Virus record (IMG/VR): IMGVR_UViG_3300016486_001578 | Reading direction: 5' to 3' (one strand) | DNA: 64,000 nt | DNA from: a virus | Taxonomy: Duplodnaviria > Caudoviricetes | In this document: positions 2,512 to 34,028 of the stretch, piece by piece | Layout of the letters: the number at the start of each line of letters is the position of its first letter | Position numbering within the stretch: position 1 is the first letter of the stretch | The notes under the pieces: generated by a model | Told to the model about the DNA's origin: nothing | What the model saw: only the letters and a program-made list of their open reading frames with translations | The model's database searches: none | Position numbers and translations under genes: made by a program

Positions 2512-3237
2512 TTATTTAAGTAAAGTATCTAATTTTTTATTTCTGCGATATGCTTCGAAATTGCCGTCATGGTTTATATAAATATCATAATATTCATCAA
2601 TTGCTTCATCCAATAAGACCATTGTGTATCTTCTTGGTCTGTCTATTTTCCAGTGGAATTTTCGACCATCTAAAAAAGTAATATCACCGGATGAAAGATA
2701 AGAGCACTTATTTCCAAAATCACACATATCTGCTTTTGATTCATTCATAAATAATATCTTAATAGAATAAGAACCTTTTTCGACTTTTTTTATACCACTA
2801 GATATATTTCTTAATAATATTTCATCAAGAGAGTTACTAACTGGGTATAACATACTAGTAAAAGTAAATTTATTGAATATTTTTTTAAACCTGTTTATAT
2901 TTTTTGTTTTTACTTTATATTTTTCCTTATTAAAATCATCAATATTATTTGATAACATTGACATAATATACCTACTTGGTCTACTTGCTGTCCAATTATA
3001 TTTTTTATCATCTGAAAATTCAATATAACCACTCGATAACCAAGCAGAGATTGTACTAGTGTCCCACATTGTAGCCCTTGATCCATCATTAAAAACTATA
3101 TGCATTTCATATGAATCCCTTTCTAGGCTTTTTATACCACTTGATATTGATTTTAATAATATACTATCCAGTATCTTATCAACATCATATAACATAATTG
3201 AAAATGTAAATTTATTGAATATTCTTTTTAGTATCAT
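2512..3237 (-). CDS. Hypothetical protein with internal tandem duplication and C-terminal tag
   Basis: Two copies of IFNKFTF.MLY.V...LD.ILL..ISSGIK...LSSG.I.F.D..K..W...RP.RY.M; ends RRNKKLDTLLK. Confidence 0.7.
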   Translation of the reverse strand: MILKRIFNKFTFSIMLYDVDKILDSILLKSISSGIKSLERDSYEMHIVFNDGSRATMWDTSTISAWLSSGYIEFSDDKKYNWTASRPSRYIMSMLSNNIDDFNKEKYKVKTKNINRFKKIFNKFTFTSMLYPVSNSLDEILLRNISSGIKKVEKGSYSIKILFMNESKADMCDFGNKCSYLSSGDITFLDGRKFHWKIDRPRRYTMVLLDEAIDEYYDIYINHDGNFEAYRRNKKLDTLLK

Positions 3238-17483: not shown

Positions 17484-17885
17484 ATGACACAAAGTTTACC
17501 AAATGAAGAGATGATGAAGAGATGGAGTTCTATATTAGAACAACATGAGAATACTGGATTAATGAATTCAGGAACGCAATCAATAAATAACCAAATGGTT
17601 GATTTTTTACCACTAGTTACTAAGGCCTTTGTAGGGTCAGTTGCCTTAGATTTAGTTCCTGTTATTCCAATGGATGGTAGTAATTCACCAGATGAATTTA
17701 AAAAAATGAGGTCTGATATTAAAATAGAAAATAGAGAAAGGCGAATAGACTCTGTTATAGGTGGTATAAAAATTGAAGAAATGAAAATAGAAGATCACAA
17801 AGATTATAAAAAAAGTAAACCACCAAGTTGTAATTTATTCTATATGGATTATACATATGGTGGTACTTCCTCGACTACTTCCTAA
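17484..17885 (+). CDS. Truncated major-capsid (gp23-like) paralog
   Basis: RWSSILE; LPLVTKAF...VALDLVPVIPMDG...PP..LFYMDYTY resemble the N-terminal third of T4-like major capsid proteins. Confidence 0.5.
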   Translation: MTQSLPNEEMMKRWSSILEQHENTGLMNSGTQSINNQMVDFLPLVTKAFVGSVALDLVPVIPMDGSNSPDEFKKMRSDIKIENRERRIDSVIGGIKIEEMKIEDHKDYKKSKPPSCNLFYMDYTYGGTSSTTS

Positions 17886-18504
17886 CTAAGGTTCTAAATT
17901 CAGTCATTAGTTTATTTCTAGTTGGTTGATATTTTTCTTGTAATTCACCCCAATTCCATTTCTTAGAATTTAATTCACTCCATATTTGATTAGAGACATC
18001 AAAATTTATTTTACCATATTTCACAAATTCAATACCAAATTGAGCAATTCTTAGTGAGTGAAAAATACTTTTTATTCCAATATAATAATCACCTTGTTCT
18101 AATTTCTTTTTGGATTTAACCCATGAGTTAGAAACTGAGTGTGATATATTATGTATTAGGCTTTTTTCACTAAGTTTAAAATCACAATCAAATTTCTTAA
18201 TAATAGCCCAATCTGGGGCAAATAAACATTCTATTGCTTTTATGTGATTAACTTTCGACCATTGTTTGAATTTATCCGGAACAATTAGGTGTATGTTTAA
18301 TTCTTTACCCTTAAATTTTGATGATAGTGTTGATGTCTGGTTTATTTCTACCTCAGGTGAGCTAGAATTACATATCAGTATTATATCCCAATCAGAATTA
18401 TAATTTGATGTTCCATAAACTCTGGATCCAAAAATATAACAACCATGCACCCTTAATGGGTGCTTCTTTGCTACCTTGCATATTTCTTCTAATGTTGGTA
18501 TCAT
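17875..18504 (-). CDS. Pol-beta-superfamily nucleotidyltransferase
   Basis: IFGSRVYGT...SDWDII signature; C-terminal KSIFHSLRI helical domain. Confidence 0.8.
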   Translation of the reverse strand: MIPTLEEICKVAKKHPLRVHGCYIFGSRVYGTSNYNSDWDIILICNSSSPEVEINQTSTLSSKFKGKELNIHLIVPDKFKQWSKVNHIKAIECLFAPDWAIIKKFDCDFKLSEKSLIHNISHSVSNSWVKSKKKLEQGDYYIGIKSIFHSLRIAQFGIEFVKYGKINFDVSNQIWSELNSKKWNWGELQEKYQPTRNKLMTEFRTLVRK

Positions 18505-18834
18505 TTTTTTCTCCTTGTTGCTTTTATAACTTTAGTTTTTTTACTACCTTCTATTCTTTTCTTCTTCTTTAAATAAACATCACCATTAAGAACATATGGT
18601 AAATTTTGTATATTAGCTCTTATTGATTTTATACGATTAGACATTTTTGTTTTTGAGATACCCTTAAGTGAATCTACCTCACTCTCTAATAAATTAATTT
18701 GATCCATCATAGGTTTGGATGCTTCTATTACCAATTTTGTCTTTAGACTTTCTGGTATCATTACTCCATACCATCTAATTTTATTATCATTCTTGATTAT
18801 GTCTTCGTATATAGTATCTGTCATGTTTTATTTT

Positions 18835-18970
18835 TGGTGTTCCTAGCAGGATTCGAACCTGCCTTGTAGAGCTACTTGATTAATGACCATTGCCTATATA
18901 TCACTGGGACCATTTATCCATCACCTACCCAAACTCACTAACTTGTTGCGACCTCATTAGTTATAGGAAC
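18835..18970 (-). ncRNA. tRNA-like RNA (136 nt) with encoded CCA and expanded central domain
   Basis: Acceptor GTTCCTA/TAGGAAC + A + CCA; T-arm GCAGG-TTCGAAT-CCTGC; no 7-nt anticodon loop. Confidence 0.75.
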
Positions 18971-19686
18971 CTATTTATATGTAAATATAATAATAATAAT
19001 TAAGATAAACAAGTTTTATTTTTAATTAAAAGTCCGTATATTTATTAAAATAAAAAGAAATGAGTAGAGAAATAAATCTATATAGATATGAATATAATAT
19101 AAGCGAAGATGATAAACATTTCAATTCAATTAAAATAACTTTACCTAGTTATGTGGAATTAGTTTATGATATTGAGTATGAATATTATGATAATGCTTGG
19201 TTAGAGAAATTTAAAGATATGATTAATTATTTTATTTATATTTTAAAAAAAATATCTAGGTTAGATTTTAAATTTTCCAAAATGAAAAAAAGAATTGGTC
19301 TATATAGCATGATTAATCTTAAATTTAAACACAATACAGAAAAAAATACACTAATAATTCTTGAGGAGTATTTAGAAGATCATAAAATAAATATAATATA
19401 TCTATCATCTGTTAGAGACCGAGAAGAAAAACTAAAATCAATTGGTATATGAAAAATATAAATAAAGAAACTTTTTGCATACACAAAGAGAGTGGACATA
19501 TAGGAAAGATAATAAATGAGATTACCGGAAGCACTGATTTCCCAGACCAATGGGGAATCTATTGGCTACCTGGTAAGAATTCCGAACAAAATAAAGAACA
19601 TGGTCGTAAATACTATTGGCAAGACAAAGACAAAATAGAAATCCTAAAAAGTATAAACTAATTATAAATTTATTCATATTAATATT

Positions 19687-20855: not shown

Positions 20856-21687
20856 CCTATCTTAAACACAAAGATCTGCAACATCATGATATATACTATA
20901 TTATATACTCGACTCAGGAATCCATTTTTGTCCATTTATACTCAATGTCCCAAGTTCATTATCCCACTCAATCTCTTCTGAGTAATCATCCATCAATTTA
21001 GCAATTGTCTCTGATCTTTTTTTAGATATTGATTTTTTACCTGCTATAAATGATTCTATGACCATAGAATGTATCTCTCTTTTAGCACTATCGGATAGAA
21101 TATCCATTCTATCACAAAATGACTCAAACCTTTCTAAAACTTCTTTTGGTAGTTTGGTTTTTGTTTTTAATTTGTCTTTCATTTATTTTATATGAAAAAA
21201 TAAAACAATAGTTTAGTCTATGAGCCAAGAAGTCTCAGAAATAATAAACAAACAGATAATAGATAATAAAAATAAATTTGATAGTCTATATAAAAAGTCA
21301 TTAATTCAAGCCGGTGATGATGTTTGTACAAAGGGTAGTGTAGAATTCTGGGAAAATTGGCTATCACAGATTATTTTATTATTCTCCACCTTTTCTATTC
21401 GCCCAAGCTCTGATAGTAAAGTGGTTATTTTTGTTTCTTCGCCCAAAAGATTATTTATAGATATCTCTCTTTTAAAGGATTCACTATTCGTTATATGTTT
21501 ATATCGATTTAATAAACCAGATATGGTTTTTGTGTCGCCTATGTTTATGTTTAATCTTTTCATAGCACCGACAAGAGTTTTATATCTCTTAGCTAAGTAC
21601 CACTTATCTGAATAGTTATCACATATCTTGTCTTTATAACTGACATAATATTCTCCAACTGATCCAATATAAACAATGTATTCCATG

Positions 21688-21802
21688 TCCTCAGGGTAGG
21701 ACCTGCACCTACCTACTCTTAATTAACTCGGATTGAGGCTTTAATATCCCAATCAAATGCGGTTAATTCGTCAATGTGTTTTTCTCGATAAACTACCTAA
21801 GG
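21688..21802 (-). ncRNA. tRNA-like RNA (115 nt) with long hairpin replacing the anticodon arm
   Basis: Acceptor CCTTAGG/CCTGAGG + A; D-arm TA-GTTT-ATCGAGA-AAAC; T-like arm GTAGG-TGCAGGT-CCTAC; central AATTAAC/GTTAATT and GATTGGG/CCTCAATC stems. Confidence 0.6.
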
Positions 21803-29792: not shown

Positions 29793-30653
29793 ATGAATGA
29801 ATCAAATATTATAGTATATTATCACAACAAGGATATGGATGGTTATACATCAGGAGCTATCTTAAAATACAAATACCCAAAGGCGGAATTAATAGGATGG
29901 GATTATGTTGATGAAGTACCAGATTCAGAAATGCTTAGAAATAAAGAAGTTATATTAATAGATATAACATTCCCAATAAAGGATTTACAAAAAATAGGGA
30001 AAGTCGCTTCCAAATTAACAATAATTGACCACCATTCTTCTTTTAGGAAAGAGGTTGATGATTTGGTTGAGGAAATAAATTTTGAATATGTTTATGATGT
30101 ATCAAAATCAGCATGTGAAGGTGGTTGGAAATACTGTTTCCCTAATAGAAATGTACCAGTTGCTATTGAATTAATTGGAGAATACGATACACATAGAAAC
30201 GGAGACTTAGATAAATGGGAAAATACGATTCTGCCATTTAAGTATTATTCTTATAGTATAATAAACAAAGTAGAAGATTTTCCAACAGATTTTTTTACTG
30301 AGAAAATAAATATATCAGAATGTATAGATATTGGTGTTAATATAATGAAGTATGACGATACCATGAATGAATCACTTTGTTCGAAAAATAGTTTTGATAA
30401 AAAAATATATGGTGGTCTAAGAGCTATATGTCTAAATTATTCACCATTTAGTTCTGAGGTGATAAAAAGTGTTTGGGACCCAAATAAATATGATATAATG
30501 GTTGGATTTTGTTTTGTTGGTGATAGTTGGACAATCAGCCTTAGGAGCGTCGGTGATATTGATGTTTCTGATATAGCAAAGGCCCGTGGAGGCGGTGGGC
30601 ATAAAAATGCCGCAGGATTCGAAGTCAAGAAATTCGAAGATATATGGGTATAA
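29793..30653 (+). CDS. DHH/DHHA1 phosphoesterase
   Basis: YHNKDMDG, IIDHH, SLRS, GGGGHKNAAGF. Confidence 0.9.
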   Translation: MNESNIIVYYHNKDMDGYTSGAILKYKYPKAELIGWDYVDEVPDSEMLRNKEVILIDITFPIKDLQKIGKVASKLTIIDHHSSFRKEVDDLVEEINFEYVYDVSKSACEGGWKYCFPNRNVPVAIELIGEYDTHRNGDLDKWENTILPFKYYSYSIINKVEDFPTDFFTEKINISECIDIGVNIMKYDDTMNESLCSKNSFDKKIYGGLRAICLNYSPFSSEVIKSVWDPNKYDIMVGFCFVGDSWTISLRSVGDIDVSDIAKARGGGGHKNAAGFEVKKFEDIWV

Positions 30654-33877: not shown

Positions 33878-33951
33878 ACGGTAGCGATCCATTGGTGTGG
33901 TTACCTCATTTGGAATGAGGGTTATTGTGGGTTCAACTCCCACCTACCGTA
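33878..33951 (+). tRNA. tRNA-Pro (TGG)
   Basis: Acceptor ACGGTAG/CTACCGT; anticodon arm CCTCA-TTTGGAA-TGAGG; T-arm GTGGG-TTCAACT-CCCAC; weak D-stem, C at position 8, no encoded CCA. Confidence 0.8.
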
Positions 33952-34028
33952 CAAATACCTATATTTGTATAAATAAATAAAAATATGCAAAAAGAACCAT
34001 CAATAGGGTCTTCCCGCCAAACAGCGGG

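Follow-up and report, generated by a model that had tools for sequence, protein, structure and literature searches.

A giant-phage tRNA-Arg(UCU)-type derivative that lacks an anticodon arm: a probable non-decoding RNA in an operon leader

The window analyzed here is a stretch of 64,000 nucleotides and forms part of a 560,843-bp metagenomic contig (GCA_900162855.1, FUWD013429777.1) of a giant phage, which has a G+C content of 28% and encodes HisRS, UvdE, and DHFR. On the minus strand of the window, a 136-nt tRNA-like element, termed E1, can be read directly from the sequence, from 18970 (G1) to 18835 (the end of its CCA). Positions within E1 are numbered 1–136, such that the window position equals 18971 minus the element position. 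E1 is located between a promoter-like region and two genes of the same orientation, and it is missing from the closest relative of this phage at the locus, designated L031. The features of the locus, from upstream to downstream, are as follows.

18983–19031, minus strand: promoter-like region and putative promoter, nearly identical in L031 and containing TTATCTTAA.
18825–18982, minus strand: ACATATAAATAG, E1, and AAAATAAAAC, replaced by 6 nt (GTATTT) in L031.
18835–18970, minus strand: the whole of E1, from G1 (18970) to CCA (18837–18835), by direct reading; the sole non-tRNA match of the strict top-half scan described below.
18964–18970, minus strand: 5′ strand of the acceptor stem, GTTCCTA (E1 1–7), forming seven perfect Watson-Crick pairs with TAGGAAC at 18845–18839.
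18937–18961, minus strand: D-like arm, with the helix ACTAA/TTAGT and a 15-nt loop, TGAGGTCGCAACAAG, containing GG.
18869–18936, minus strand: helix GAGTT/AGCTC (one G-U pair) at the place of the anticodon stem, around a 58-nt insert at 18874–18931.
18846–18862, minus strand: T-arm, GCAGG-TTCGAAT-CCTGC (E1 109–125).
18835–18845, minus strand: 3′ strand of the acceptor stem, TAGGAAC (E1 126–132), with the discriminator A and the encoded CCA.
18501–18824, minus strand: ORF of 107 aa that belongs to no known family, its ATG 10 nt past the CCA.
17875–18504, minus strand: RlaP-related nucleotidyltransferase of 209 aa with a Pol-beta fold (Pfam Polbeta, NTP_transf_2), listed for context only.

E1 thus has the top half of a tRNA, with a 7-bp acceptor stem, a 5-bp T stem closed by a 7-nt loop of the form TTCRANY, and a discriminator (A73, E1 133, at 18838) followed by an encoded CCA (E1 134–136), all as described in an earlier sequence-only reading of the same DNA. 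The enlarged D-like arm and the GAGTT/AGCTC stem described there can likewise be read at 18937–18961 and 18869–18936. The first of these helices pairs ACTAA (E1 10–14) with TTAGT (30–34), the loop between them having GG at positions 18 and 19, and the second pairs GAGTT (35–39) with AGCTC (98–102). Compared with the tRNA norm for the D arm (a stem of 3–4 bp and a loop of 7–11 nt with G18 and G19), E1 retains the GG but its stem is 5 bp and its loop 15 nt in length, and it no longer has the ancestral GCG/CGC pairing. About 82 nt of E1 stand where a tRNA has its anticodon stem-loop and variable loop.

E1 was not called as a tRNA by ARAGORN with default settings or by Rfam at the gathering threshold (29 bits), both of which reported only a tRNA-Pro at 33878. 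When Rfam matches up to an E value of 10 were admitted, the tRNA family (RF00005) aligned to the 3′ 73 nt of E1 only and scored 13.6 bits, compared with 43–69 bits for the 11 phage tRNAs above the Rfam threshold. These were among the checks proposed in the sequence-only reading, and its view of E1 as non-decoding is borne out: apart from the T-arm, E1 contains no hairpin with a 5-bp stem and a 7-nt loop, let alone one with U33 and a purine at 37, and as written it is unable to decode. Its dismissal of a tmRNA also holds, as an ARAGORN tmRNA search of E1 was empty even at a lowered threshold, Rfam gave no match, and pair 3:70 of E1 is U-A and not the G3:U70 that confers alanine identity on tmRNA. 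The statement that no self-splicing intron can be recognized is in agreement with the lack of any match to an intron or ribozyme family, group I included, at E values up to 10, and a reading of the candidate junctions in E1 revealed no 4-bp helix flanked by 3-nt bulges, i.e., no bulge-helix-bulge motif. E1 matches no family in ARAGORN, run with its intron, tmRNA, and mitochondrial settings, or in Rfam, whether matches are taken at the gathering threshold or at E values up to 10.

Relaxed settings do produce tRNA calls, and these raise the possibility that E1 is an intron-containing tRNA in which about 51–57 nt would be removed from the anticodon loop by phage enzymes such as an endonuclease and RNA ligase, with a product that decodes, for example, as Leu(GAG), Leu(CAA), or Thr(GGU) according to where the cut falls. 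ARAGORN calls a tRNA after a 57-nt deletion, G18 and G19 of E1 fall at the positions so numbered in tRNA, the phage has genes for both an RNA ligase (about 7 kb beyond the window) and an RlaP-like nucleotidyltransferase, and there are inserts in other tRNAs of the phage. Those inserts, however, spare the anticodon loop and interrupt the D loop or the variable region instead, and the calls themselves are inconsistent. At 80–90% of the default threshold, ARAGORN reads E1 as a tRNA-Thr(GGU) with a 47-nt intron, a D stem of one pair, and a 16-nt variable loop, and when every block of 20–74 nt was deleted from E1 in turn, the 33 resulting calls all had a broken D arm and their identities shifted among Leu GAG, Thr AGT, Asn ATT, Cys, Phe, and SeC. 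With the better-supported helices, position 33 is a G. The inconsistent anticodons, the one-pair D arm, and the missing group I and bulge-helix-bulge signatures led to rejection of an ordinary intron-bearing tRNA. No protein-dependent tRNA splicing is known in bacteria or phages, and a spliced, decoding tRNA is considered very improbable here.

The tRNA top half of E1 is real, as a strict scan shows. Both strands of 105 kb, comprising the window and the loci L165 and L173 (41 kb of adjoining contig), were searched for sites at which a TTYRANY T loop, a T stem containing two or more G-C pairs, and an acceptor stem of seven perfect pairs occur together, and the only matches were nine genuine tRNAs and E1. 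The two helices beneath the top half were evaluated by shuffling the inner 101 nt of E1 200,000 times, some positional slack being allowed. The D-like helix by itself occurred in 12.8% of shuffles but both junction helices together in only 0.55% (p about 0.006), and a four-way junction is therefore probably kept in E1. The same cannot be said of the insert, for which the sequence-only reading had drawn a branched domain of about 60 nt with two sub-hairpins. The inner 58 nt have a predicted folding energy of −7.0 kcal/mol, compared with a shuffle mean of −9.7 (z = +1.15), and an insert that folds worse than its own shuffles leaves the branched domain unsupported. The whole of E1 has a folding z of −0.41, rival pairings such as AGTTA/TAGCT compete for the same bases, and constrained folds differ little between the alternative pairings.

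Insights into the origin of E1 came from a 24-mer query that comprised its T-arm and the 3′ strand of its acceptor stem. This had no match in 185,579 species genomes or in viral_contigs, and its absence from the species genomes led to rejection of the 3′ end of E1 as a copy of a host attachment site. In metagenome_contigs it occurred once, on a 13.6-kb contig (L043) that carries 16 tRNA genes, has a G+C content of 40%, and is unrelated to the contig of this phage. There the 24-mer belongs to a canonical 75-nt tRNA-Arg(UCU) at 3087–3161, which is identical to E1 throughout the acceptor stem and T-arm (31 nt) and at U8, compared with just 60–75% likeness for the other tRNAs of L043 and those of the phage. 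The resemblance extends in part to the D region, where AATG of the D loop is common to both and CGCAAC occupies positions 23–28 of the L043 tRNA and 21–26 of E1. As the 24-mer itself retrieved the match, only the D-region identities are independent evidence of descent; the probability that a 6-mer matches by chance at so similar an offset is, by our own estimate, about 0.001. In at least 120 bacterial species from many phyla, the 17-mer GCAGG-TTCGAAT-CCTGC likewise comes after an anticodon loop with UCU. Taken together, the identities in the D region, the acceptor stem, and the T-arm indicate that the ancestor of E1 was a phage gene of the tRNA-Arg(UCU) type. A tRNA-Arg(UCU) of the phage itself was sought in the 29 kb beyond the window, where there are 13 tRNA-type genes and none for Arg.

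The comparison with L043 also indicates what has changed. Positions 29–48 of the tRNA-Arg, which include most of its anticodon arm and the variable loop, are replaced by E1 27–108. The canonical GCG/CGC D stem is broken in E1, where the bases at 10 and 12 are A and T, and its place is taken by a new helix that involves TTAGT. In addition, the L043 tRNA has G73 and no CCA, whereas E1 has A73 and an encoded CCA. The sequence-only reading had allowed that E1 might turn out to be a normal tRNA with a recent random insertion or a member of a known Rfam family. An ordinary tRNA-Arg(UCU) that shares its entire acceptor stem and T-arm with E1 does exist, but no Rfam family matches, and the change is no simple insertion; instead, the anticodon arm and the variable loop have been replaced and the D stem rebuilt.

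E1 is confined to one lineage. For the 107-aa ORF that follows it, a search of 5.8 billion proteins gave only three relatives, and these represent two diverged lineages, both of which lack E1. In L031, the promoter-like region of about 50 nt and the ORF (83% identical) are retained and E1 is absent, and the lineage of P0124, in which the ORF is 50% identical, is also without it. E1 itself is identical in 10 metagenome contigs from several samples, with only the A-run after the CCA varying, but as the flanks are identical too, this says nothing on selection. The A-run, at 18825–18834, differs by one base among the contigs of this phage (AAAAAT vs. AAAAAAT, with L012–L020 and L032 compared) with a further indel in L032, which is probably homopolymer error or micro-variation, and a 141-aa variant of the ORF that extends across E1 in the L032 gene call was rejected as an artefact of a homopolymer indel. 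From these comparisons, E1 can be described as an optional block of about 150 nt in the 5′ leader of one lineage. The flanks of E1 differ from those of L031 by about 10%, and the interior of E1 cannot be recognized as a tRNA; hence E1 probably arrived already formed or was lost in L031, and the junction fits either. A box, TATAAATA, immediately precedes G1 and, if used, could place a start site inside the acceptor strand, a point that counts against the preferred account given below.

The restricted distribution bears on the possibility that E1 is an inert relic, that is, a decayed duplicate of a tRNA gene that was scrambled by slippage or recombination and is passively carried in the leader. 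Confinement to one lineage, an unstructured insert, and the destruction of the canonical D stem and anticodon arm are all in favor of such a relic, and AATGGTC and GTGAT, which recur within E1, hint at slippage. The repeats are not significant, however, with 75 of 300 shuffles scoring as highly, and a tandem duplication of a D-arm unit within E1 was rejected as not significant. Neutral decay would also be an odd way to arrive at no changes in the 31 nt of the acceptor stem and T-arm beside heavy change and a new junction elsewhere, a comparison that is biased by the manner in which L043 was retrieved, and with flanks about 10% different from L031, E1 probably arrived formed and did not decay in place. 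An inert relic is regarded as possible but doubtful.

Other members of a family to which E1 might belong were sought in several ways. No second copy of the insert-bearing form was found by blastn, megablast, or tblastn in the phage collection, and pattern scans of viral_contigs gave no relative, the three inner 18-mers having only chance matches in unrelated sequence with no tRNA-like context. A covariance model (R1) built on E1 and run on LR756502.1, the window, and the adjoining loci returned only ordinary tRNAs or spurious weak matches, the best being a class-II-like tRNA-Lys(UUU) of LR756502.1 (36.6 bits) and the phage's own 85-nt tRNA-Val (27.6 bits). A candidate third copy at 30612–30623 was rejected as a chance 12-mer within a coding region, and no significant complementarity to E1 was found in other parts of the window. 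With no family found in the collections searched, E1 is best described as a single, lineage-specific case of a tRNA-derived non-decoding element.

The sequence-only reading had also proposed that E1 acts as a decoy or as a partner of the nucleotidyltransferase, the gene for which it placed in the same orientation downstream. The gene is indeed downstream on the same strand, but the 107-aa ORF, beginning 10 nt past the CCA, is located between the two. The partnership itself is not supported, and a conserved pairing was rejected, as no tRNA-like element precedes the nucleotidyltransferase homologues at four loci (LR756502.1, L021, L022, and L023) and the L031 operon lacks E1. The enzyme of the window matches Pfam Polbeta and NTP_transf_2 only and not RlaP (PF10127), while its 47%-identity relatives P0105 and P0108 do pass the RlaP model (24.8 and 28.6 bits vs. 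a threshold of 23). At L021 812–5364, the gene for a 65% identical nucleotidyltransferase is part of a run that encodes an RNA ligase, an unknown protein, YqeY, the nucleotidyltransferase, three unknown proteins, and Thg1, which looks like an RNA/tRNA-repair gene block. The RNA ligase of the phage described here is more than 50 kb away from its nucleotidyltransferase. The predicted role of RlaP enzymes in jumbo phages is the repair of damaged RNA ends by restoring nucleotides (PMC7824862), and since the family borders on RlaP, a connection of the nucleotidyltransferase with tRNA ends is not absurd and a tRNA connection is plausible.

These results also bear on whether E1 is a trans-acting tRNA mimic, which would sponge a host factor that reads the acceptor/T-arm/CCA end, such as a tRNA-end-modifying toxin or nuclease, or present its 58-nt single-stranded loop for pairing on a stable tRNA scaffold, maybe together with the nucleotidyltransferase. 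A mimic is suggested by the combination of an intact top half with a remodelled remainder, by the new 5-bp helix in place of the lost D stem and the four-way junction that is kept, by the encoded CCA, which no other tRNA-type gene of the phage has, and by the nucleotidyltransferase family, which borders on RlaP and is elsewhere encoded beside RNA ligase and Thg1 genes (PMC7824862). Against it are the absence of E1 from L031, the lack of relatives in viral_contigs, the phage collection, LR756502.1, and (for the 3′ 24-mer) metagenome_contigs, the lack of a conserved link to the nucleotidyltransferase, and the lack of significant complementarity elsewhere in the window. Moreover, without an anticodon loop, E1 would be unable to act as a decoy for anticodon nucleases. 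A trans-acting role of this type is judged to be rather unlikely.

In the preferred account, held with a little more than even confidence, E1 derives from a tRNA-Arg(UCU)-type gene, is specific to this lineage, does not decode, and is transcribed within a 5′ leader, after which it is probably matured in the manner of a tRNA. Given its position between the conserved promoter-like region and the operon of the 107-aa ORF and the nucleotidyltransferase, E1 would be transcribed within the leader of that operon. RNase P, the CCA-adding enzyme, and the T-loop modifying enzymes read the acceptor, T-arm, and elbow, so that with its top half intact, to which the GG-bearing D-like loop would contribute part of the elbow, E1 could be excised as a stable RNA. 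In this scheme, RNase P would cut the leader transcript at G1, the 3′ end would be trimmed to the CCA and the CCA maintained, the T loop would be modified, and a stable RNA of about 136 nt would be released and accumulate, with the same cuts leaving an mRNA with a short A-rich leader. Separation of the 3′ end from the mRNA is a difficulty for this scheme because an encoded CCA normally blocks RNase Z. The identity set of ArgRS consists of C35, U/G36, and A20, and as the anticodon bases that it uses are missing, E1 should not be charged by ArgRS. The phage also tolerates other enlarged tRNAs with inserts in the D loop and the variable region, which is in favor of a non-decoding derivative. Roughly equal weight is given to the released RNA being an accessory RNA (a decoy, end-mimic, sponge, or loop scaffold) and to its being a tolerated relic.

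Several known RNAs resemble the proposed product in part. With canonical tRNA-Arg(UCU) (RF00005; L043 3087–3161), E1 shares the acceptor stem, U8, and the T-arm, with a partial D match in AATG and CGCAAC, and differs in having 82 nt instead of an anticodon arm and variable loop and another D helix with a 15-nt loop. Species 1 RNA of phage T4 (rnaC, NC_000866 70908–71046) is a stable RNA of about 139 nt and of unknown function. Like E1, it has ends that pair and a canonical T-arm (CCGGG-UUCGAAU-CCCGG), and where a tRNA has its body there are additional hairpins. No sequence relationship between the two is detectable, however, as R1 matches only the T-arm region of rnaC (14.5 bits), and homology is not indicated. 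Moreover, rnaC is part of a tRNA cluster and strongly structured (z = −4.6), whereas E1 stands alone and has only weak structure, and the ends of rnaC do not form the clean 7-bp acceptor stem that those of E1 do. The tRNA-like domain of tmRNA also combines an acceptor stem, T-arm, and CCA with a long domain in place of the anticodon arm, but E1 has no G3:U70, tag reading frame, or pseudoknots and is less than half the size.

The bacterial Y RNA YrlA, which is bound by Ro/Rsr, is a non-decoding mimic of the acceptor/T/D elbow, as E1 would be. The ends of YrlA, however, are in the Ro-binding stem and its acceptor-like stem is closed by a loop, whereas E1 has free acceptor ends with CCA and no Rfam match. 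YrlA is encoded by some phages. Ro with a tRNA-like partner has been mentioned for jumbo phages (PMC7824862). The topology of E1 is also that of the engineered "tRNA scaffold" RNAs, which have a top half and a D arm with a cargo at the anticodon position but are man-made. Ponchon and Dardel in 2007 reportedly put foreign RNA in place of the anticodon arm and obtained RNAs that were processed and stable in E. coli, which by analogy is an indication that the architecture of E1 could be processed and could accumulate. A bolder extension, held to be distinctly unlikely, is that E1 is a working natural tRNA scaffold with a 58-nt single-stranded cargo, having kept just those tRNA parts on which host enzymes for processing, CCA maintenance, and end recognition depend, and serving either as a sponge for a host defence factor that attacks the tRNA 3′ end or as a dedicated substrate or guide of the co-transcribed RlaP-like enzyme, with a protein-spliced true tRNA as a still rarer variant. 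If true, protein-dependent splicing of a tRNA would be seen for the first time in a bacterial system.

Giant phages have large and odd sets of tRNAs, and tRNA-targeting defence and counter-defence is an active field. If the top half of a tRNA was kept while its decoding half was swapped, E1 would show how a tRNA gene can become a non-decoding RNA that is still processed by host enzymes. This phage and the L031 lineage together constitute a natural presence/absence experiment for any effect on the downstream operon. Even as a relic, E1 would matter for annotation, as it is missed by standard tRNA finders and mislabelled as an intron-bearing tRNA-Thr or tRNA-Leu with relaxed settings.

The other tRNAs of the phage differ from E1 at their 3′ ends. 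None of the 11 called by ARAGORN (L173 8187–12131, where the window coordinate is the L173 coordinate plus 72154, and 33878–33952 in the window) has an encoded CCA; in 10 of them, N73 is followed by CAA, and the exception has GCTT. The ACCA of E1 is one base from this N73-CAA trailer, which itself looks conserved. D loops of about 21–22 nt are found in other tRNAs of the phage, and two tRNAs (L173 9733–9819 and 10932–11018) have the same D-loop insert of 12–14 nt, (T)ATCCGAGAGGTG, directly after GGT. One of the pair, with the loop CTTTTAA, is a Lys UUU tRNA that ARAGORN miscalls as Leu(aag) and that scores 28.1 bits with Rfam; the other, with the loop CTTCCAA, is a Gly UCC tRNA that is missed by ARAGORN and scores 61.6 bits with Rfam. 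An insert common to unrelated isoacceptors looks like a deliberate feature. The RNA ligase (PF09414) is encoded at L165 18912–20000 (about 71254–72342 in window coordinates), and within a few kb past it are genes for RNase H, NUDIX, rhomboid, and Endonuclease_NS proteins and then the tRNA block.

A second tRNA-shaped element, E2, is found at 21688–21802 on the minus strand of the window. Its acceptor strands are CCTTAGG/CCTGAGG and its D arm is GTTT/AAAC; the T loop, TGCAGGT, is odd, and the anticodon position is occupied by a long hairpin (z = −1.76). The ORF adjoining it is called on the opposite strand (21220–21615, plus), which makes it doubtful that E2 abuts a start codon. E2 has no Rfam tRNA match at E values up to 10 and no relatives in viral_contigs, and it has no insert in common with E1 and no similarity to the E1 insert.

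In the 642-kb phage LR756502.1, tRNA-Lys(UUU) genes at 373661–373847 (L033 1501–1589 and 1599–1687) measure 87–89 nt and have a variable arm of 4 bp, which gives them a class-II-like shape rarely associated with tRNA-Lys, and one of them has an encoded ACCA and an acceptor stem, GTTTCTG/CAGGAAC, close to that of E1. The same phage has a dense tRNA array in which two T-arm-bearing stretches that ARAGORN does not call are located between called tRNAs (L002 1355–1532), one of them about 87 nt in length with the T-arm GCAGG-TTCGAAT-CCTGT. The tRNA arrays of giant phages seem to hold many tRNAs that are missed by standard finders.
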